A DNA stretch of 64,000 bases, from assembly GCF_030013205.1 (NCBI RefSeq), contig NZ_CP122648.1. One strand, 5' to 3'. The translations under genes were made by a program, and so were the position numbers. Below are positions 11,790 to 57,393 of this stretch, in pieces (positions within the stretch are counted from its first letter, which is position 1; each line of letters begins with the position of its first letter). This DNA comes from Escherichia coli. Its GTDB lineage: Bacteria > Pseudomonadota > Gammaproteobacteria > Enterobacterales > Enterobacteriaceae. Below the pieces are notes generated by a model. That model searched no databases. It was given only the letters and a program-made list of their open reading frames with translations, and was not told the origin of the DNA.

Positions 11790-12350
11790 ATGAACAAGTT
11801 TTTATTTGCCGCTGCATTGATCGTCAGTGGCCTGCTCGTTGGCTGTAATCAACTCACCCAATACACCATCACCGAACAAGAAATTAACCAGTCGCTTGCG
11901 AAACATAATAATTTCTCAAAAGATATCGGTTTACCCGGCGTGGCTGACGCCCATATTGTTCTGACAAACCTGACCAGCCAAATTGGTCGCGAAGAGCCGA
12001 ATAAGGTTACCTTAACCGGAGACGCCAATCTGGACATGAACTCCCTGTTCGGTAGCCAGAAAGCGACCATGAAACTGAAGCTGAAAGCGCTGCCCGTGTT
12101 TGATAAAGAAAAAGGTGCGATCTTCCTGAAAGAGATGGAAGTGGTCGATGCGACGGTACAACCGGAAAAAATGCAAACGGTGATGCAAACGTTGCTCCCC
12201 TATTTGAACCAGGCATTACGCAATTACTTTAACCAGCAACCAGCTTACGTCCTGCACGAAGATGGCAGCCAGGGCGAAGCAATGGCGAAGAAACTGGCGA
12301 AAGGCATTGAAGTGAAGCCAGGCGAAATTGTCATTCCGTTTACGGATTAA
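11790..12350 (+). CDS. yceB: Lipoprotein YceB (DUF1439)
   Basis: Signal peptide with lipobox LLVGC; GAGGA ribosome-binding site before ATG 11790; track ORF start upstream is in grxB tail. Confidence 0.85.
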   Translation: MNKFLFAAALIVSGLLVGCNQLTQYTITEQEINQSLAKHNNFSKDIGLPGVADAHIVLTNLTSQIGREEPNKVTLTGDANLDMNSLFGSQKATMKLKLKALPVFDKEKGAIFLKEMEVVDATVQPEKMQTVMQTLLPYLNQALRNYFNQQPAYVLHEDGSQGEAMAKKLAKGIEVKPGEIVIPFTD

Positions 12351-43292: not shown

Positions 43293-44536
43293 GCGAGTTG
43301 AGTTATCTGGAAAAATTGCTGGATGGGGTTGTGGTTGAGTGGAAAACCCTTGAGGATATTTCTATAAAGATATCATCTGGAGGAACCCCTAAAACTGGCG
43401 TATCAGAATTTTATGATGGCGACATTCCTTGGTTGCGAACTCAAGAAGTAAACTTTTGTGATATATGGGATACCGAGGTAAAAATAACTGAGTCTGGAGT
43501 TAAAAACTCTAGTGCAAAATGGATACCAAAGAATTGTGTCATTGTTGCTATGTATGGGGCAACTGTGGGGAAAATCGGCATAAACAAAATTCCAATGACA
43601 ACAAATCAAGCGTGCGCAAATATTCAACTTAATGAAGAAGTTGCTCATTATAGATATGTATTTCACTTCTTGTGTAGCCAATACACATATATCAAATCCC
43701 TTGGAACAGGGTCCCAGACAAACATAAATGCGCAGATTGTCAAAAATATTAAGATCCCCATCCCCTGCCCAGAAAACCCGGAAAAATCCCTTGCCATCCA
43801 GTCTGAAATCGTTCGGATTCTGGACAAATTTACTGCACTTACCGCTGAGCTTACCGCTGAGCTTAACATGCGTAAAAAACAGTACAACTACTATCGCGAC
43901 CAGTTGTTGAGTTTTAAAGAGGGTGAGGTTGAGTGGAAAAGTCTGGAAGATATTGCTTTATTTAGACGGGGTTCATTTCCACAGCCATATGGAAATAGTG
44001 AATGGTATGATGGAGAAGGTTGCATGCCTTTTGTTCAGGTAGCTGATGTGGCTGATTCAGGATTTACATTACACACAAAAACCAAACAACAGATTTCTAA
44101 GATTGCACAAAGCAAGAGCGTTTTTGTTGAGGCTGGAACAATTGTTGTGACACTGCAAGGTACTATTGGTCGAGTAGCAATAACACAGTACGATTGTTAT
44201 GTGGATAGAACTCTTGCAATATTTACTAACTTTAAAGTAAAAATAAACAAAAAATACTTTGCTTATCAACTAAAAGCTAAATTCGATTCAGAGAAAGAAT
44301 TTGCAAGAGGAAGTACTTTGAAGACAATTACAAAAGAAGAGTTTTCTAAGTTCCAATTACCTCTTCCCTCAATAAACGAACAAAATCGTATAGTATCACT
44401 ATTGGATAAGTTCGATACACTGGCTCATTCAATAAAACAAGGTCTCCCGCGTGAAATCGAGTTGCGCCAGAAACAATACGAATACTACCGTGATTTACTG
44501 TTCAGTTTCCCGAAACCTGAAACTGCCAGTAATTAA
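43289..44536 (+). CDS. hsdS: Type I restriction-modification specificity subunit HsdS (two target-recognition domains)
   Basis: 415 aa; ATGA overlap with hsdM; conserved central and C-terminal repeats ([14 protein letters not shown] / [15 protein letters not shown]); TAEL-TAEL spacer. Confidence 0.88.
43841..43864 (+). repeat. Tandem 12-bp repeat ACCGCTGAGCTT x2 encoding TAEL-TAEL in the hsdS central spacer
   Basis: Read directly from sequence; same repeat class whose copy number sets spacer length in EcoR124I/EcoR124II. Confidence 0.85.
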
Positions 44537-44657: not shown

Positions 44658-47600
44658 ATGACTCATCAGACACACACCATTGCTGAATCCAATAACTTTA
44701 TCGTTCTTGATAAGTACATCAAAGCTGAGCCAACAGGCGACAGCTACCAGAGCGAATCGGACCTGGAACGTGAACTGATTCAGGACCTGCAAAATCAGGG
44801 TTATGAATTTATTTCCGTAAAATCACAGTCGGCAATGCTATCCAATGTTCGGGAACAGCTTCAGAGCCTCAATGGTGTGATGTTTAATGACAGCGAGTGG
44901 CGGCGCTTCACGGAGCAGTATCTGGACAACCCCAGCGATGGTATTCTGGATAAAACCCGTAAAATCCATATCGACTATATCTGCGACTTTATTTTTGACG
45001 ACGGGCGACTTGAGAACATCTATTTGATAGATAAAAAGAATCTCATGCGCAATAAGGTGCAGATTATCCAGCAGTTTGAACAGACGGGTTCTCATGCTAA
45101 CCGTTATGACGTCACGATCCTGGTTAATGGTTTACCGCTGGTGCAAATCGAACTAAAAAAACGCGGGGTGGCGATTCGTGAGGCTTTCAACCAGATACAT
45201 CGTTACAGTAAAGAGAGTTTTAACAGCGAAAATTCCCTGTTTAAGTATCTGCAACTGTTTGTCATTTCTAACGGCACCGATACCCGTTATTTTGCCAACA
45301 CGACAAAGCGCGATAAAAACAGTTTTGACTTCACCATGAATTGGGCGAAATCAGACAACACGCTGATTAAAGACCTCAAAGACTTTACCGCTACCTTTTT
45401 CCAGAAACATACTCTGCTGAATGTTCTGGTGAACTACAGCGTTTTTGACAGTAGTCAGACGCTACTGGTGATGCGACCGTACCAGATTGCCGCCACCGAG
45501 CGCATTCTGTGGAAAATTAAGAGTTCCTTTACAGCGAAGAACTGGTCAAAACCGGAAAGCGGTGGGTATATCTGGCACACTACCGGTTCTGGTAAAACCC
45601 TCACCAGCTTTAAAGCCGCGCGTCTGGCAACAGAGCTGGACTTTATTGATAAAGTCTTCTTTGTGGTCGACAGGAAAGACCTCGATTACCAGACCATGAA
45701 GGAATATCAGCGTTTTTCGCCAGACAGCGTCAACGGCTCGGAAAATACCGCAGGCCTTAAACGAAATCTGGATAAGGACGATAACAAAATTATCGTCACT
45801 ACTATTCAGAAACTCAATAACCTGATGAAAGCAGAAAGCGACCTGCCTGTATATAATCAGCAAGTGGTGTTTATATTTGATGAATGCCACCGCAGCCAGT
45901 TTGGAGAAGCGCAGAAAAACCTGAAGAAGAAATTCAAACGCTATTATCAGTTTGGTTTTACCGGCACCCCTATTTTCCCGGAAAACGCCTTAGGCTCAGA
46001 AACAACCGCCAGCGTATTTGGTCGTGAATTGCATTCGTATGTAATTACCGATGCGATTCGTGACGAAAAAGTGCTCAAATTCAAAGTGGACTACAACGAT
46101 GTGCGGCCACAGTTTAAGTCTTTAGAGACAGAAACTGACGAGAAAAAACTAAGTGCGGCTGAAAATCAGCAGGCGTTTCTTCATCCCATGCGTATTCAGG
46201 AAATCACGCAATATATTCTGAATAATTTCCGCCAGAAAACTCACCGTACCTTCCCTGGCTCAAAAGGTTTTAATGCTATGTTGGCAGTGAGCAGCGTGGA
46301 TGCCGCGAAAGCCTATTATGCGACGTTTAAACGGTTACAAGAAGAAGCCGCTAATAAATCGGCTACCTATAAACCGCTGCGTATTGCGACAATCTTCTCC
46401 TTTGCCGCCAATGAAGAACAAAATGCCATTGGTGAAATTTCCGATGAAACTTTTGATACCAGCGCAATGGACAGCAGTGCTAAAGAGTTTCTGGACGCTG
46501 CAATTCGTGAATATAACAGCCATTTTAAAACTAACTTTAGCACCGACAGTAACGGTTTTCAGAACTACTATCGTGATTTAGCCCAGCGGGTTAAAAATCA
46601 GGATATCGATCTGCTAATTGTCGTGGGGATGTTTTTAACCGGCTTCGATGCTCCAACATTGAACACGCTATTCGTCGATAAAAACTTGCGTTTTCACGGC
46701 CTGATGCAGGCATTTTCCCGCACCAACCGTATTTATGATGCAACTAAAACCTTCGGTAATATCGTCACTTTCCGGGATCTGGAACGCTCAACTATTGATG
46801 CCATAACGCTGTTTGGTGATAAAAACACCAAAAATGTGGTGTTAGAAAAGAGTTATGCTGAGTATATGGAAGGCTTTACTGATGCTGCTACTGGTGAAGC
46901 TAAACGCGGCTTCATGACAGTAGTTTCAGAACTGGAACAACGGTTCCCTGACCCTGCCAGTATTGAAAGTGAAAAAGAGAAGAAAGACTTCGTTAAACTG
47001 TTTGGCGAATACCTGCGTGCCGAGAACATCCTGCAAAACTATGATGAATTTGCCACGCTAAAAGCCCTGCAACAAATCGATCTTAGCGATCCTGTTGCGG
47101 TAGAAAAATTCAAAGCAGAACATTATGTGGATGATGAAAAGTTCGCTGAATTGCAAACAATTCGTCTCCCTGCTGATCGCAAGATTCAGGATTATCGTTC
47201 TGCCTATAACGATATTCGCGACTGGCAGCGCCGTGAGAAAGAAGCTGAGAAAAAAGAGAAATCAACCACTGACTGGGATGACGTAGTTTTTGAGGTCGAT
47301 TTGCTGAAGTCTCAGGAAATAAACCTGGATTATATCCTTGGACTGATTTTCGAACACAACAGACAAAATAAAGGCAAGGGCGAAATGATCGAAGAGGTCA
47401 AACGCTTAATTCGTTCAAGCCTGGGGAACCGTGCTAAAGAGGGCCTGGTGGTCGATTTTATTCAGCAAACGAACCTGGATGATTTACCGGACAAAGCCAG
47501 CATCATTGACGCATTCTTTACGTTTGCTCAACGCGAACAGCAACGTGAAGCAGAAGCCTTGATCAAAGAAGAAAATCTCAATGAAGAGGCGGCGAAACGC

Positions 47601-47774
47601 TATATTCGCACATCTTTAAAACGCGAATACGCCACCGAAAATGGCACGGAATTAAACGAGACACTGCCCAGACTCAGTCCTTTAAATCCGCAATATAAAA
47701 CGAAAAAACAGACTGTTTTTCAAAAAATTAGCGCATTTATTGAAAAATTTAAGGGGGTGGGTGGAAAGATTTAG
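44658..47774 (+). CDS. hsdR: Type I restriction enzyme endonuclease/translocase subunit HsdR
   Basis: 1,038 aa; Walker A TGSGKT and DEAD-box variant FDECHRSQ; good ribosome-binding site; follows hsdMS. Confidence 0.9.
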
Positions 47775-48970
<1,196 letters not shown>

Positions 48971-49163
48971 CTAAGATAATTGGTTTTTAGCGAGTGACGG
49001 GCTAGGTTGTGTCAGTCTGTCTCATGTCGATATTACGGGGATGATGCAAACCTGAATGCTGCGATATTGGCGTGTCAGGGGAGGCATCTTACGGTATCAT
49101 TTACCGCAATTTTTAAGATGCAATGCCCTGCATCGCAGGCTTTTCTTCAGACCAGGATGATTC

Positions 49164-50216
49164 ATGAACGACAAAATCAGTCAGGACACGATCAACAAAG
49201 CCCTGTGGGCCGCGTGTGATACGTTCCGTGGCACCATCAGTGCTGATACCTATAAAGACTTTATCCTTACCATGCTGTTCCTTAAGTACATTTCGGATGT
49301 CTGGCAGGATCATTACGATGAATATAAAAAACAGTATGGTGATGCACCAGAACTCATTGAAGCCATGATGGCGAATGAACGTTTCGTATTGCCGAAAAGC
49401 GCCAGTTTCTATGCGCTGTATGAACGTCGTCATGAACCGGGCAATGGTGAGCGCATCGACCAGGCTCTGCATGCGATTGAAGAAGCTAATGGCACCAAAC
49501 TGAAAGACGCCGGGAAAAGCGTGTTCCAGGATATTTCGTTTAACACCGATCGCCTAGGTGAAGAAAAACAGAAGAACACCATCCTGCGTCAGCTGCTGGA
49601 AGACTTTGCCGGTCAAGATCTTAACCTGAAGCCGAGCCGTGTCGGTACGCTGGACGTTATCGGTAATGCCTACGAATATCTGATCAAAAACTTTGCTGCC
49701 AGCGGTGGGCAGAAAGCCGGGGAATTCTATACCCCACCAGAAGTTTCGGACCTGATTGCAGAACTGCTCGATCCGCAACCGGGTGATACCATCTGCGATC
49801 CAGCCTGTGGTTCCGGTTCATTATTGATGAAGTGTGGGCGTAAAATTGTCTCCGGGCATGATAGTCGTAACTATGCATTGTTCGGTCAGGAAGCGATCGG
49901 TTCTGCGTGGTCGCTGGCGAAAATGAATATGTTCCTGCACGGGGAAGACAACCATAAAATCGAGTGGGGCGATACCATTCGTAACCCGAAGCTGCTCGAT
50001 AAAAATGGCGACCTGATGCTGTTTGATATCGTGACCGCTAACCCACCGTTCAGCCTCGATAAGTGGGGCCATGACGAGGCCGAGAACGATAAGTTTGGCC
50101 GTTTTCGTCGCGGTGTACCGCCGAAGACTAAAGGAGGTATGGGATGCCTGCGCCAATATGGAGCGCTATATCCAGTACGGCTTTACCCCGCAAGAGCGCC
50201 ACCGTCTGTTTGGTGA
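49164..50216 (+). pseudogene. hsdM: Second type I restriction-modification methyltransferase hsdM, 3'-truncated (homology ends near 50,130; 3' tail of ORF is out-of-context)
   Basis: HsdM N-domain, DPACGSGSLL and NPPFS motifs present, but ORF ends ...[13 protein letters not shown] then unrelated tail; no hsdS follows. Confidence 0.7.
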
Positions 50217-51471
50217 GAGCGACTGGGGTCAGTTTGTGCCCCGTGATTTTGCCCATCTGCTTGATCTGCTAGGATCCCCAAACACGGCCGACGCTGCCGA
50301 TAAAAGCCGTGCAGCTGCCGGTAGCCAAGGGCGCACCTTGTTGGCCATTTTGCAGGATGACAAGCTTGATGGTGAGCAGACGGTGGAGGAGGAGAGCGCA
50401 GGCTCCGAGCGCTTTAACAGCGTCATCAACTTCTCCAACTTCTTGCTCCATGTGCTGCGACTCGTGAGCCGCGACCCGGGTGATACGGAGGGGGTGCCGC
50501 TTGATGATAAACAACTGGTCGATCAGTTTGAGCTGCGAGTGATAAGGCAACCGGATCCAGTAGCGGCAGTTCAGCGTTTTATCTATGGCCTGTTAAAGAG
50601 CAAGTATCTGTTTGATCAGTTCATCATCAAGCGCGAGTTTGCCGATGGCAAGGATAGTTGGAGTTTGAAGCGGCTGCACAGGTATTCGGAAAAGAGCGTC
50701 AGTTACATCAATACCTTTGACAAGGATGAAAATGAGAATGGTTTCTCTGGTGTTAACCGGCGGGTCCTGATGTTGCTGTCGGCGTTTCATGTGTCGACCC
50801 CGACCCTGGTTTACAAACATTGGCTGAATGGTGCACTGAGATATCTGTTCGACAATTGTCACCCTGATCAACCGGTGGATGCCGGGGCTTATCTGTCCTA
50901 TCTGGAGAGTCAGGCTCGCCGCTTTGTCTTCCAGCGCTTTTTGGCGCCTGGTGAAGGGGCTTCCTATTACCAGATGCTCTACCTTGATAACGCCCTGTTG
51001 CCCGCCATCAATGTGGATGAGAGTTGGCACAAGGTGATTACATCCAAACTTCGCTTCGGTCATATCGAGAACAACTTTGTCTTCAACTTCCTCGACTATC
51101 TGCTGTGGGTACGAGATCGGAATAGCGACAAAGTTGCTGGCTCCTTTGAGTTCACTTTCCGCAGCTCGGTGGAGCACTTCTCACCCCAGCATCCGATGGA
51201 TGGCTATAAACCGGTTGAGCAGAGTGCACTCCATTCGTTTGGCAACCTTTGCCTTATCAGCCACAGCAAGAACTCGCGCTTGAGTAACTTCCAGCCGCAA
51301 CAGAAGCAGGAGCACTTTGAAGCAAGCCTTGCCAATAACCAGACTGATAGTCTTAAATTGCTTGCTATGATTCGGCTGATGAAAGATAAAGGTCGTTGGC
51401 TGGAAGATGAGATAGCTGTGCATCAACAAGATATGTTGCAGGTCTTACTATCCAATCAAATTCAGCAATAA
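50158..51471 (+). pseudogene. GmrSD-like type IV restriction enzyme, C-terminal DUF1524 (His-Me finger) portion; 5' DUF262 part missing
   Basis: C-terminal ...[15 protein letters not shown]...[16 protein letters not shown] resembles the DUF1524 motif; no DGQQR DUF262 motif; upstream in-frame sequence is hsdM DNA read in another frame. Could alternatively be expressed from ATG 50158. Confidence 0.5.
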
Positions 51472-51657
51472 CGGATTGAATCTGTTTATGAAATTTGGCT
51501 GCTATCAACTAATGGGCGTTAAGTTGATTGTATGATCTGATTGATAAAGAAGGGGAGACTAAAAATCTCCTCTTCTTTGCAGCAGTTTACTGCGGTCTTT
51601 TTGTGATGCATCAGCATAAAACGTTTTACTTGTGGACCCTAAGAAATGGAGAACATT

Positions 51658-54600
51658 ATGTCGACTGTAGATACCTCTATAGCAGAGGAACTCAATCAAG
51701 GAGGCTCAGATTTTATTCTGACTTCCCTCGAGGCTATGCGTAAGAAGTTATTGGACCTTACGTCTCGAAATCGACTTTTGAATTTCCCTATCACTCAAAA
51801 AGGGTCTTCACTACGTATTGTTGATGAATTACCAGAACAGCTTTATGAAACCCTTTGCTCGGAAATCCCGATGGAATTTGCTCCTGTGCCCGATCCAACT
51901 AGAGCGCAGCTGTTAGAGCATGGCTATCTCAAAGTTGGGCCAGATGGTAAAGATATACAGTTAAGAGCTCATCCTAGCGCTAAGGATTGGGCGCACGTCT
52001 TAGGAATCCGTACAGATTTTGATTTACCAGATAGCCATAAAACGGTTGTTTCTGATTCAGATAGAGAGTTGCTGGAAAAAGCCCATCAGTTTATCTTGCA
52101 ATATGCCCAAGGCCAGAATGGAAAATTAACAGGGATTCGTTCTGAATACGTTAATCAAGGTATAGCTTTGTCAGCGTTGAAGGAGGCGTGCTGCTTAGCA
52201 GGCTATGAAGGGCTTGAGGATTTTGAACGACAGGCAAAGGCTGGGAATGAGATTAGTATATCTTCTTCCAATCCCTCTCATGACGATAATCGGATACAGG
52301 CTCTGCTTTATCCAAATGAACTGGAAGCTTGTTTGCGCGCCATCTATGGTAAGGCTCAAACTGCTTTGGAGGAGAGTGGCGCCAACATCTTGTATTTGGC
52401 GTTAGGGTTCCTTGAGTGGTATGAAAGCGATTCCTCTGAAAAGGCACGTTATGCACCGTTATTTACAATTCCGGTGAGATGTGAACGAGGAAAATTAGAT
52501 CCGAAGGATGGTCTTTACAAGTTTCAACTTTATTACACGGGTGAAGATATTTTGCCCAATCTCTCTTTGAAGGAAAAACTTCAGGCTGACTTTGGCCTCG
52601 CTCTTCCTTTGTTCAATGAAGAGGAAACTCCAGAGTCTTATTTTGCTTCGGTGAAGAAGGTTGTAGAGCAGCACAAACCTAAATGGTCTGTGAAACGTTA
52701 TGGTGCACTTAGCTTGCTCAATTTTGGCAAGATGATGATGTATCTTGACCTCGATCCTGCCCGCTGGCCTTGTGACAAGCGCAATATATTGTCTCATGAA
52801 GTAATTCGTCGCTTTTTCACCAGTCAGAGCTGTGGTCAAGAGAATTCCGGCTTACCTGGTGGCTTCGGTCAGCATGAGTACTGCATCGATAGTTACCCTG
52901 ATATTCATGACAAGGTTCCACTAATCGATGATGCGGATAGCTCGCAGCACAGTGCGTTGATCGATGCTATCCGTGGTCAAAACTTAGTCATTGAGGGCCC
53001 TCCTGGTAGTGGCAAATCACAAACGATCACCAACTTGATTGCAGCAGCTCTGCTCAACGGTAAGAAAGTCCTGTTTGTGGCAGAGAAGATGGCTGCACTG
53101 GAGGTCGTCAAACGTCGCTTGGATCGTGCGGGGCTAGGTCAATTTTGCTTAGAGTTGCACAGTCATAAAACTCATAAGCGCAAGGTGCTGGATGATATTA
53201 ATGCTCGCTTGGTGAGTCAGGCGACCATGCCTACTATGGAAGAGATTGATGCTCAGATTTTGCGTTATGAAGATCTTAAGCAGCAGCTCAATGAATATGC
53301 CGCATTGATCAATAACCAATGGGCGCAAACAGGCAAAACGATCCATCAGATTTTGAGTGGTGCAACCCGTTATCGTCACAAATTAGATATTGATGCAACA
53401 GCACTTCATATCGAAAACCTTTCCGGGAAGCAGTTGGATAAAGTGACCCAATTACGGCTGCGTGACCAAATAGTAGAGTTTAGCCGCATCTACAAAGAGG
53501 TTCGTGAGCAGGTGGGGGCTAATGCAGAAATATATGAGCACCCTTGGAGCGGTGTGAATAACACACAAATTCAATTGTTTGACAGCGCTCGTATAGTCGA
53601 TTTGCTACAAACTTGGCAGACATCAATTATCGACTTTCAACATAGCTATCAAGAATATGTAGATAAGTGGGCGTTAGAAGGCGAAAGCCTTAATACGCTT
53701 CAATATATTGAGCAATTGGTAGAAGATCAGTCGAATCTTCCAGTGTTGTGTGGTTCAGAGCATTTCCCAGCACTTAGTGAGCTAGATTCACCCGATGCCA
53801 TTGCACGGGTGCGTCACTATTTAGATAGGTTCGAGTTGCTACAAGGTCATTATGTGGCCTTGAGCCAGGTTATCGAGCCTCAAAAGCTACGACTTTTAGA
53901 ACAAGGACAATCGTGTGACTTTCCTCGTGAAGAGCTGGAAAAATATGGTGCAGCAGAGGATTTCACTTTACGTGATTTGGTCAGGTGGCTTGAATCCATC
54001 CAATCAATTCATGATGAGTTATCATCTATTTATGCGCAATTAAACGATTTCAAAAATGCTTTGCCAGATGGTATTGCTTCGTATATCGATGATTCGCAAG
54101 CTGGATTGCTATTCTGCTCTGAGTTGTTGTCGATTCTGGGTGCTTTACCGACTGAGCTTATTAGAGTTCGAGATCCTCTTTTTGATGATGATGATATCGA
54201 TGCAGTATTGCGCGACTTAATGTGTCAAATCGAAACATTGCGTCCTTTAAGAGATGGTCTATCTACTTTGTATCAATTGGACCAGTTGCCTTCCCAAGAG
54301 ATGCTCGCGCATGCCGTTGCTGTTATCCAGCAAGGGGGATTATTTGCATGGTTTAAGAGTGATTGGCGTAGTGCCAAGGCACTGCTCATGGCGCAATCTC
54401 GTAAGCCCGACACTAAGTTTGCTGAGTTAAAACGCTGCTCAGCTGATTTGCTCAAGTATTCGGAGCTGTTACAACGGTTTGAACAAAGTGACTTTGGTAA
54501 TCAACTTGGTAATGCATTCCGAGGGTTGGACACCGACTGTGAACAACTCATGTTATTGCGTGATTGGTACAAGAAGGTCCGAGCTTGTTACGGGATAGGT

Positions 54601-57393
54601 TTTGGAAAGCGAGTTGCGATAGGCTCTGGATTATTTAACCTAGATGGTGAGATTATCAAAGGTGTGCATTTAATCGAGAAATCGCAGATTAGCTCAAGAT
54701 TAATGACTTTGGTTAAACGGGTCGAGCACGAGGCTAAGTTATTACCGCGTATTTCTAGCTTGTTGGAAGAACATGCATCTTGGTTAGGTGAGCAAGGTGT
54801 ATTGATGCAATCTTACCGACAGGTGCGGAATACTCTCATTGCCTTGCAGGGATGGTTTATCAATCCAGATATATCATTAGAGCAGATGACTCATTCCTCC
54901 GAGATTTTGCAAAACATAAACGATCTTCAGATATCCCTTGAAAATGACTCGTTACAGTTAGGGGCGTTTTTACAATTAACCCCATTGGCTTGCGGTGCGT
55001 ATAAAAATAATCAACTGACGTTAGACACTATTAACGACACGCTGAATTTTGCCGAGCAACTGGTTGATAAGATAAATTGCGTATCCTTGGCTACCCAGAT
55101 CAGACATTTGGCTAGTGGTAGTGATTACGATTTACTATGTCGTGATGGTGGGGAAATAGTTTCGAAATGGAATGAACAGATTAAAAATGCTGAGTTATAT
55201 GCGCTAGAAACAAAGTTAGAGCGGAGTCAGTGGCTCAAGTCGACTGATGGTTCTCTTAATACATTAATCGAGCGCAACGAAAGAGCAATACAGCAACCCC
55301 GTTGGTTGAACGGGTGGGTTAACTTTATTCGTTGTTACGAGCAGATGGATGAAAACGGATTGCAGCGAATCTGGAGTGCTGTACTTGCGGGCTCGCTCCC
55401 GATTGAAAAAGTTGAATTGGGTTTAGCATTAGCAATTCATGACCAGCTGGCGCGGGAGGTTATTCACATCCACCCTGAATTGATGAGAGTTTCCGGCTCA
55501 CAGCGCAATGCTTTGCAGAAGTCATTTAAAGATTACGACAAAAAACTGATTGAATTACAACGTCAGCGGATTGCAGCAAAAATTGCTTGCCGAAATATAC
55601 CAGAAGGGAATTCTGGTGGTAAGAAAAGCGAATATACAGAACTAGCTTTGATCAAAAATGAGTTGGGTAAAAAAACCAGACATATTCCAATTAGACAATT
55701 GGTTAACCGTGCATGTAATGCGCTGGTTGCAATTAAACCTTGTTTCATGATGGGGCCAATGTCAGCAGCTCATTACCTAGAACCTGGACGAATGGAATTT
55801 GATCTGGTGGTGATGGACGAAGCGTCTCAGGTGAAGCCAGAGGATGCATTGGGTGTCATCGCGAGGGGCAAGCAACTAGTGGTCGTTGGTGACCCGAAAC
55901 AGCTACCACCAACCAGTTTCTTTGATCGAAGTGCCGACGGAGAAGATGACGATGATGCCGCGGCTTTAAGTGATACTGACAGCATTTTGGATGCTGCTTT
56001 GCCACTGTTTCCTATGAGACGTTTGCGTTGGCACTATCGTTCACGACATGAAAAGTTGATTGCATACTCTAACCGCCATTTTTATAACAGTGATTTGGTG
56101 ATATTCCCTTCCCCAAATGCTGAGTCTCCAGAGTATGGGATTAAATTTACCTATGTGTCAAAAGGTCGGTTCTCCAATCAACACAATATTGAAGAAGCCC
56201 AAGCAGTTGCTGAGGCCGTACTTCATCATGCGCAACACCGGCCGGGTGAGTCACTCGGGGTAGTGGCCATGAGTTCCAAGCAACGCGATCAAATTGAGCG
56301 CGCTATCGATGAATTGCGCCGAAATCGCCCTGAATTTAACGATGCAATCGATGGCTTATATGCCATGGAAGAGCCACTTTTTGTGAAAAACCTTGAGAAC
56401 GTTCAAGGGGATGAGCGTGATGTAATCTTTATTTCCTTTACCTATGGACCTTCTGAGCATGGTGGAAAGGTTTATCAACGCTTTGGACCTATCAATTCCG
56501 ATGTTGGCTGGCGTCGCTTGAATGTGCTTTTCACTCGATCAAAAAAACGGATGCATGTGTTTAGTTCAATGCGTTCTGAAGATGTATTGACGAGTGAAAC
56601 CAGTAAACTTGGTGTTATTTCGTTGAAAGGTTTTTTACAGTTTGCCGAAAGTGGCAAACTAGATTCCCTCACAACGCATACCGGCAGGGCTCCAGATAGT
56701 GACTTTGAGGTTGCTGTAATGGAAGCACTCAATCACGCTGGGTTTGAGTGTGAACCTCAGGTAGGGGTTGCAGGATTCTTTATTGATCTAGCTGTGAAAG
56801 ATCCAGGTTGTCCTGGCCGTTACTTAATGGGCATAGAGTGTGATGGTGCGGCTTATCACTCAGCTAAATCTGCTCGTGATCGTGACCGTTTGCGTCAAGA
56901 GGTTCTGGAGCGTTTGGGTTGGAGAATTAGCCGCATTTGGTCCACTGATTGGTTCAGTAATCCTGATGAGGTTCTATCTCCGATTATCCGTAAACTCCAT
57001 GAGCTTAAAACATTGGCTCCAGACGTTGTTGTACCTTCCTATGAATATGTAGAAACGATTGAGTCAAGCGCTGAAGTGGCGTCTGACTCAATTGATTCTC
57101 TTATGCCCAATTTGGGGCTTAAGGAGCAACTTAAGTATTTTGCCACACATGTCATTGAGGTTGAGCTTCCTAATGTTGATGCTGATCGTCGTTTGTTGCG
57201 GCCCGCAATGCTTGAGGCTTTGCTGGAACATCAGCCTTTATCACGTTCCGAGTTTGTTGAACGAATACCTCATTATCTGCGGCAAGCAACAGATGTATAC
57301 GAAGCGCAACGCTTTCTTGACCGAGTCTTGGCATTAATTGATGGCGCAGAGGCTGAAGCGAATGATGCAGCGTTTGAGTCTGAATTGGCATAA
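51658..57393 (+). CDS. Giant DUF4011-type SF1 (Upf1-like) helicase with C-terminal Vsr/DUF559-like endonuclease domain (Hhe-like architecture); candidate defence protein
   Basis: DUF4011-like signatures (LLDLTSRNRLLNF, ILYLALGFLEW), Walker A GPPGSGKS (52996-53019), motif II VVMDEASQ (55807-55830), motifs V/VI QGDERDVIFIS...RRLNVLFTRSKKRM, then GFFIDLAVKD...IECDGAAYHS...RDRDRLRQEVLERLGWRISRIW Vsr-like fold; ATG 51658 has GGAG 6 nt upstream (alternative ATG 51646). Confidence 0.85.
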   Translation: MSTVDTSIAEELNQGGSDFILTSLEAMRKKLLDLTSRNRLLNFPITQKGSSLRIVDELPEQLYETLCSEIPMEFAPVPDPTRAQLLEHGYLKVGPDGKDIQLRAHPSAKDWAHVLGIRTDFDLPDSHKTVVSDSDRELLEKAHQFILQYAQGQNGKLTGIRSEYVNQGIALSALKEACCLAGYEGLEDFERQAKAGNEISISSSNPSHDDNRIQALLYPNELEACLRAIYGKAQTALEESGANILYLALGFLEWYESDSSEKARYAPLFTIPVRCERGKLDPKDGLYKFQLYYTGEDILPNLSLKEKLQADFGLALPLFNEEETPESYFASVKKVVEQHKPKWSVKRYGALSLLNFGKMMMYLDLDPARWPCDKRNILSHEVIRRFFTSQSCGQENSGLPGGFGQHEYCIDSYPDIHDKVPLIDDADSSQHSALIDAIRGQNLVIEGPPGSGKSQTITNLIAAALLNGKKVLFVAEKMAALEVVKRRLDRAGLGQFCLELHSHKTHKRKVLDDINARLVSQATMPTMEEIDAQILRYEDLKQQLNEYAALINNQWAQTGKTIHQILSGATRYRHKLDIDATALHIENLSGKQLDKVTQLRLRDQIVEFSRIYKEVREQVGANAEIYEHPWSGVNNTQIQLFDSARIVDLLQTWQTSIIDFQHSYQEYVDKWALEGESLNTLQYIEQLVEDQSNLPVLCGSEHFPALSELDSPDAIARVRHYLDRFELLQGHYVALSQVIEPQKLRLLEQGQSCDFPREELEKYGAAEDFTLRDLVRWLESIQSIHDELSSIYAQLNDFKNALPDGIASYIDDSQAGLLFCSELLSILGALPTELIRVRDPLFDDDDIDAVLRDLMCQIETLRPLRDGLSTLYQLDQLPSQEMLAHAVAVIQQGGLFAWFKSDWRSAKALLMAQSRKPDTKFAELKRCSADLLKYSELLQRFEQSDFGNQLGNAFRGLDTDCEQLMLLRDWYKKVRACYGIGFGKRVAIGSGLFNLDGEIIKGVHLIEKSQISSRLMTLVKRVEHEAKLLPRISSLLEEHASWLGEQGVLMQSYRQVRNTLIALQGWFINPDISLEQMTHSSEILQNINDLQISLENDSLQLGAFLQLTPLACGAYKNNQLTLDTINDTLNFAEQLVDKINCVSLATQIRHLASGSDYDLLCRDGGEIVSKWNEQIKNAELYALETKLERSQWLKSTDGSLNTLIERNERAIQQPRWLNGWVNFIRCYEQMDENGLQRIWSAVLAGSLPIEKVELGLALAIHDQLAREVIHIHPELMRVSGSQRNALQKSFKDYDKKLIELQRQRIAAKIACRNIPEGNSGGKKSEYTELALIKNELGKKTRHIPIRQLVNRACNALVAIKPCFMMGPMSAAHYLEPGRMEFDLVVMDEASQVKPEDALGVIARGKQLVVVGDPKQLPPTSFFDRSADGEDDDDAAALSDTDSILDAALPLFPMRRLRWHYRSRHEKLIAYSNRHFYNSDLVIFPSPNAESPEYGIKFTYVSKGRFSNQHNIEEAQAVAEAVLHHAQHRPGESLGVVAMSSKQRDQIERAIDELRRNRPEFNDAIDGLYAMEEPLFVKNLENVQGDERDVIFISFTYGPSEHGGKVYQRFGPINSDVGWRRLNVLFTRSKKRMHVFSSMRSEDVLTSETSKLGVISLKGFLQFAESGKLDSLTTHTGRAPDSDFEVAVMEALNHAGFECEPQVGVAGFFIDLAVKDPGCPGRYLMGIECDGAAYHSAKSARDRDRLRQEVLERLGWRISRIWSTDWFSNPDEVLSPIIRKLHELKTLAPDVVVPSYEYVETIESSAEVASDSIDSLMPNLGLKEQLKYFATHVIEVELPNVDADRRLLRPAMLEALLEHQPLSRSEFVERIPHYLRQATDVYEAQRFLDRVLALIDGAEAEANDAAFESELA

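Follow-up and report, generated by a model that had tools for sequence, protein, structure and literature searches.

The window, by which we mean the whole 64-kb stretch of Escherichia coli DNA that was analysed (64,000 nucleotides of contig NZ_CP122648.1), carries three genes of a type I restriction-modification system in the order hsdM-hsdS-hsdR, all on the plus strand, an order that is characteristic of type IC:

41736..43292, plus strand: hsdM, 518-aa type IC methyltransferase subunit (open reading frame; likeness to EcoR124 HsdM; PADLOC MTase_I)
43289..44536, plus strand: hsdS, 415-aa specificity subunit (PADLOC Specificity_I, full length, 1.2e-137)
44658..47774, plus strand: hsdR, intact 1038-aa type IC restriction/translocase subunit (PADLOC REase_I)

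The end of hsdM overlaps the start of hsdS by 4 nt and hsdR follows hsdS after 121 nt; in the genomes identical here, the hsdS product is WP_063084988.1, annotated 'restriction endonuclease subunit S'. Type I systems are grouped into families by cross-hybridisation, by complementation and by how similar their M and R subunits are in sequence, and both of these subunits lie close to the archetype of the type IC family. HsdM is identical to the EcoR124 HsdM of PDB 7bst at 514 of 518 residues (99.2%; search of all PDB chains), and HsdR is near-identical to the EcoR124 HsdR of PDB 2w00, with 2282 bits across all of residues 1-1038; the HsdM of EcoKI, a type IA enzyme, scores just 66 bits against window HsdM. 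The specificity subunit has two target-recognition domains (TRDs) and a central conserved region with tandem tetra-amino-acid repeats, here TAEL twice, TAEL being one of the repeats described for HsdS of type IC (TAEL/LEAT/SEAL/TSEL; PMC10030836). Judged by sequence, the operon is an intact chromosomal EcoR124-family (type IC) system with new target-recognition domains, and the initial annotation, which had placed hsdS in the EcoR124 family, is borne out in this by HsdM, HsdR, the conserved regions of HsdS, the gene order and the repeat DNA.

HsdS is built in the order TRD1, central conserved helix, TRD2, distal conserved helix, and the repeat lies in the second of these parts:

43346..43744, plus strand: TRD1, about residues 20-152, approximate boundaries (differs from EcoR124I TRD1)
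43745..43939, plus strand: central conserved region, about residues 153-217 (near-identical to EcoR124 HsdS residues 140-210)
43838-43865, plus strand: periodic tract (Tandem Repeats Finder: period 12, 2.3 copies, 100% matches)
43841-43852 and 43853-43864, plus strand: the two full repeat units ACCGCTGAGCTT, encoding TAEL TAEL, residues 185-192
43940..44323, plus strand: TRD2, about residues 218-345, approximate boundaries
44324..44533, plus strand: distal conserved region, which carries the partner helix (aligns to EcoR124 HsdS 330-404)

In a phmmer alignment against 7bst_A, the match to EcoR124 HsdS is near-perfect over the N-terminal 25 residues, residues 153-223 of the query and the C-terminal 75 residues, and both variable blocks, the TRDs, are unlike those of EcoR124 HsdS. 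TRD1 is 97-100% identical in many other Enterobacteriaceae type IC alleles, and TRD2 recurs, at 98.6-100% identity, in alleles on chromosomes and plasmids whose TRD1s are unrelated and whose repeats number either two or three; this pairing of TRD2 with other TRD1s shows domain shuffling around the conserved centre. Two loci that have both TRDs in common, L015 with two repeats and L016 with three, form a further two/three-repeat pair, with six substitutions between them. The central linker, from LDKF to xxRKKQY, is 11 residues long with two repeats, and the equivalent linker in the distal partner helix is 15 residues long, which is the central length with a third TAEL; a review likewise notes that three repeats make the two HsdS helices equal in length (PMC3874165).

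[quoted passage not shown] Read in the window DNA, positions 43841-43864 are ACCGCTGAGCTT twice, head to tail and in frame with the open reading frame 43289-44536 (plus strand), the first codon of the tract being codon 185. The 12-nt periodicity runs 3 nt further upstream (CTT) and 1 nt further downstream (A), and the resulting 28 nt of perfect periodicity offer 16 nt of out-of-register homology. The 64-kb window has no second perfect tandem duplication of period 8-20, the analytic expectation for such duplications is 0.004 positions per 64-kb window, and 1 of 300 mononucleotide shuffles contained any perfect 12x2. The same tract is found at the same hsdS position in more than 1,300 E. coli records, and it is therefore not a chance repeat. 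Two weak tandem repeats occur elsewhere in the window, one at 1784-1814 (period 16, 1.9 copies, 80% matches) and one at 12273-12301 (period 11, 2.5 copies, 88% matches).

The operon is part of an island whose chromosomal edge is a tRNA-Ser gene, and the following features lie at that edge and downstream of hsdR:

37416..37502, plus strand: tRNA-Ser by ghrA, chromosomal edge of the island (coordinates transferred from locus L001; window = L001 + 23288)
47922-48902, minus strand: IS5-family (ISKpn26-like) transposase, downstream of hsdR
49164-50135: second type I hsdM, C-terminally truncated
50128-51471: HNH/GmrSD-like gene, N-terminally truncated
51658-57393: Hhe, a 1911-aa DUF4011 anti-phage protein

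Together, the genes at 47922-57393 are a defence island at tRNA-Ser. Besides the IS5-family element, the second type I/GmrSD remnants and Hhe, the island holds CbtA/CbeA, an antirestriction gene and a GTPase. Its left arm in the window (37700-40300) consists of partial DUF4942 and DUF5983 genes and a truncated ESPR-type autotransporter, and an alternative left arm, seen in loci L027, L038 and L039, has a full DUF4942, DUF5983 and an 891-aa AIDA/Ag43-like autotransporter. The hsdS region is 100% identical in 15 complete E. coli chromosomes, all of them from pigs (O139:H1, ETEC).

Gap-length change by repeat number is a mechanism that has been textbook knowledge since 1989. EcoR124I, with two TAEL repeats, reads GAA N6 RTCG, and EcoR124II, with three, reads GAA N7 RTCG (PMC3874165 section 25), the difference between two and three repeats, and so between N6 and N7, arising by unequal crossing-over (PMC3874165 section 25; PMC10030836). 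The same rule of two to N6 and three to N7 is given in PMC7383803; EcoDXXI and EcoPrrI have three TAEL repeats and N7 gaps, and engineered repeat changes, EcoDXXI hybrids among them, behave as predicted (PMC3874165). In the window enzyme, the 12-nt unit encodes TAEL, which amounts to roughly a single turn of the first of two antiparallel helices that space the TRDs, and the predicted target with two copies is half-site1-N6-half-site2. If slipped mispairing or unequal crossing-over in the 28-nt tract added one unit, an N7 form with a different specificity would be expected. The step from N6 to N7 is what analogy with the family predicts for this enzyme, and the route would be either slippage or else unequal crossing-over or sister-strand exchange.

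Two copies of the repeat are present in all 15 complete genomes that carry the window allele, and the near-identical proteins P0001-P0007 all have two repeats as well. We constructed one-, three- and four-repeat versions of the window HsdS and looked them up by exact sequence in a gene-position index, in which the positive control was found in 737 blocks. The native two-repeat protein occupies 192 index blocks, the three-repeat protein (419 aa) is on 22 public contigs, and the one- and four-repeat proteins were on no contig in this exact look-up of the index. The three-repeat copies are in the same tRNA-Ser island, accompanied by intact 518-aa HsdM and 1038-aa HsdR, and 13-21 kb of alignment to the window reveals no difference other than one 12-nt gap and 0-2 mismatches; loci L030 (14,224 bp) and L033 (13,077 bp) are free of mismatches. 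Otherwise identical hsdS alleles that differ only in 12-nt units, which are the mark of a gap-length switch, thus exist in public assemblies. An assembly artefact is unlikely, since the arrays (24-36 nt) are far below read length and the variant appears in several accession series. The initial annotation had named an invariant repeat number in related strains as the observation that would speak against it, and the otherwise identical three-repeat allele on 22 contigs is the opposite of that.

The three-repeat form does not fall on a single haplotype. Among five two-repeat and nine chromosomal three-repeat loci compared for recurrence, all four combinations of repeat number with a SNP at 44840 (A/G, in hsdR, 1 kb away) are present, and both left-arm structures occur with two and with three repeats. 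Locus L028, with three repeats, has the window's left-arm structure, and L027, also with three, has the structure of L038 and L039 with its full-length autotransporter and three SNPs in common with these two-repeat loci. In DNA so close to clonal, this pattern points to at least two independent repeat-number changes on the window allele, recombination being the alternative explanation.

One assembly, GCA_041698365.1, has two contigs with the three-repeat window allele, L035 and L031 (JBGRBM010000085.1 and JBGRBM010000051.1). One of its contigs places the allele in a P1-like context (Lpa, Fic/Phd, DUF968), and in the other the chromosomal GTPase side runs into phage-like genes; divergence from the window sets in at the hsdM 5' end in L035 and at the hsdR 3' end in L031. 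The second copy in this assembly could reside on a phage-plasmid, or the assembly could be chimeric here.

Variation in repeat number extends well beyond the window allele. The central region of HsdS gave 1,368 records, both chromosomal and plasmid, in 1,277 of the 5,426 complete E. coli genomes; 644 of the places are on plasmids, and a genome may have up to 6 places. In a spread sample of 60 of the 1,368 records, with copy numbers taken from the record and query spans listed, there was no length difference (two copies) in about 27 and an extra 12 nt (three copies) in about 25, with single records at -12, +36 and +48 nt. BLAST identity bands are no way to count copies across all E. coli genomes, as BLAST splits multi-unit differences into two 100%-identical pieces that would be miscounted. 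Among the best 120 protein matches of the full HsdS, 114 have two repeats, but this ranking favours the query's own length, disagrees with the spread sample of DNA records and is no frequency estimate. Loci that were fetched include one with five copies in strain YPE12, one with six in PCP06235 and one with a one-copy linker (SALTAEL) in strain 21437.

Two further alleles show the same behaviour as the window allele over a wider range. Allele A is found with three copies (5 genomes) and five copies (10 genomes), and allele B with two (6 genomes), three (11 genomes; WP_001293046.1) and six (1 genome), and in neither allele does the rest of hsdS, 1.2 kb, contain any substitution. In all, the copy numbers seen are 3, 4 and 5 for allele A and 2, 3, 4, 5 and 6 for allele B, with no substitution outside the tract, and hsdS remnants truncated by IS3, which share a background to within 1 mismatch over 1.3 kb, have two, three, four and five copies. 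The tract therefore changes at a higher rate than point substitutions build up in the gene.

The higher copy numbers have one property in common. In the related loci that we surveyed (L002/L012, L003/L013, L007, L009, L042-L067; tRNA-Leu-adjacent island), arrays of four, five or six TAEL units are confined to loci with an hsdM or hsdS broken by an IS element, a frameshift or a truncation, and the intact operons there have two or three copies, plus one single-unit linker. None of the loci with a readable upstream region combines an array of at least four units with an intact system, and among the loci examined, intact 518-aa HsdM is accompanied by two or three copies only. The lesions and the copy numbers found with them were as follows:

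Allele A, IS2 at hsdM nt 103: copies 4 and 5
Allele A, IS3 in hsdM at nt 1405: copies 3 and 4
Allele A, 4-nt insertion in hsdM at nt 150: copies 3 and 4
Allele A, IS in hsdM at nt 334: copies 3 and 4
Allele A, 4-nt deletion at nt 194: copies 4
Allele B, IS3 at nt 345: copies 4 and 6
Allele B, truncation at nt 1141: copies 4 and 5

Several lesions are each associated with more than one copy number, so the tract evidently goes on changing, mostly upward, once the system has been inactivated. These alleles are most simply explained if purifying selection maintains two or three copies while the enzyme works and the tract drifts when it does not, although the evidence for a ceiling, a few dozen loci from two alleles, makes it a lead rather than a result. 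In its full form, the proposal is that the TAEL tract of wild E. coli mutates recurrently, that selection keeps it at two or three copies for as long as the enzyme functions, that after knockout of hsdM or hsdS it drifts, mostly upward, to between four and six, that four or more copies are incompatible with a working or safe type IC enzyme, and that natural isogenic pairs with two and three copies record real specificity changes that the host survived. We regard this proposal as an even bet. A different order of events, in which four repeats came first and selection then inactivated hsdM, was prompted by the presence of four hsdM lesions on one four-repeat allele; it was weakened when three of those lesions turned up in three-repeat loci as well, and drift after inactivation is simpler.

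For the window itself, our main reading is that an intact type IC operon in porcine E. coli (O139:H1 / ETEC) has a TAEL tract that has gained or lost units in nature, with an expected change of specificity between N6 and N7, and we give this a probability of about 0.85. At least two events among strains with 0-2 substitutions in 13-21 kb would put the rate at roughly the summed point-mutation rate of 10-20 kb, which would be orders of magnitude below that of classical phase variation. The tract looks like a rare recurrent mutational toggle and not like rapid phase variation, and it is possibly favoured by selection for new specificities. Of the 'specificity length switch' that had been proposed, the natural gain or loss of units on this allele and the N6/N7 rule of the family sustain the length switch, but 'switch' is best taken to mean a rare, recurrent mutation: two copies in 15 of 15 complete genomes give no sign of rapid switching within a clone, although these assemblies are consensus sequences in which minority length variants are invisible.

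The alternative that fares best, though we consider it unlikely, is that the copy number changes by homologous recombination or gene conversion with a three-repeat type IC hsdS copy on a plasmid, on a phage-plasmid or at a second chromosomal site. Donors would be plentiful, given the 1,368 central-region records, the 644 plasmid places and the up to 6 places per genome, domain shuffling around the central region has joined the window's TRD2 to other TRD1s, one assembly has a second copy of the window allele in a P1-like context (L035), and recombination could also yield the four-gamete pattern that we take for recurrence. However, the two- and three-repeat islands differ by 0-2 mismatches over 13-21 kb, with none beside the tract, and any conversion would thus need to have stayed within near-identical DNA. 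Recombination would also have to account for the IS-truncated remnants, whose copy numbers of two, three, four and five occur in a single background that varies by no more than 1 mismatch over 1.3 kb, and there is no intact four- or five-copy donor among the loci examined.

A high-frequency phase-variable locus, that is, an epigenetic switch of the phasevarion type that flips within cultures, would agree with the recurrence of the changes and with the fact that repeat number alters methyltransferase specificity in this family, but we judge it highly improbable. The tract holds only 2.3 copies of the 12-nt unit, and tandem arrays as short as 2.3 x 12 nt slip rarely; the 15 clonal complete genomes, albeit as consensus assemblies, show no heterogeneity; and the events are comparable in number to the 0-2 substitutions found over 13-21 kb. 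Just as improbable is a static two-copy allele, in which the repeat would be a fixed coiled-coil feature of the lineage as the 15 of 15 identical complete genomes and P0001-P0007 might suggest, since a three-copy version of the protein is encoded in this island on 22 contigs.

The mechanism at work here was already known, and what is added is a chromosomal EcoR124-family specificity allele that was previously uncharacterised, together with its natural three-repeat sibling, present in public assemblies in an otherwise identical island and on two haplotypes. Isogenic pairs with two and three copies are suited to studying how cells survive a sudden change of type I specificity and whether a changed methylome affects the phenotype of edema-disease and ETEC strains of E. 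coli. The distribution of copy numbers also suggests a functional ceiling at three repeats, a point relevant to the tolerance of the coiled-coil ruler for shifts of register.

Among known systems, NgoAV of Neisseria gonorrhoeae provides a natural parallel, as the number of its LEAT repeats varies among isolates, with methylation of GACN6TGC or GACN7TGC (PMC6789123). Both systems vary naturally in the number of a tetra-amino-acid repeat, but NgoAV has another repeat sequence, belongs to another organism and has a specificity that also depends on a downstream frameshift. EcoDXXI and EcoPrrI are of the same family as the window allele and use the same repeat, but have three repeats against the window's two. 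In the EcoPrrI-type arrangement, the anticodon nuclease gene prrC is positioned between hsdS and hsdR, unlike in the window, where no prrC lies between these genes. The closest relatives are EcoR124I and EcoR124II, which the window system resembles in HsdM, HsdR, gene order, the conserved regions of HsdS, and the repeat unit with its flanks, and it is like EcoR124I in having two repeat copies. EcoR124 is encoded on plasmid R124, an IncFIV plasmid, whereas the window system is chromosomal and sits in a tRNA-Ser island. The primers used to delete one repeat from EcoR124II by mutagenesis, ctgcacttaccgctgagctt and accgctgagcttaacatgcg (PMC10644984), match the window DNA exactly, and the repeat unit and its flanks are therefore the same DNA as in the EcoR124II archetype. 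Both TRDs differ from those of EcoR124, so the half-sites of the window enzyme would not be GAA and RTCG. The polymorphism between two and three copies, which for EcoR124 comes from laboratory derivatives, is found for the window allele in wild isolates, and its natural three-copy sibling mirrors the relation of EcoR124II to EcoR124I.
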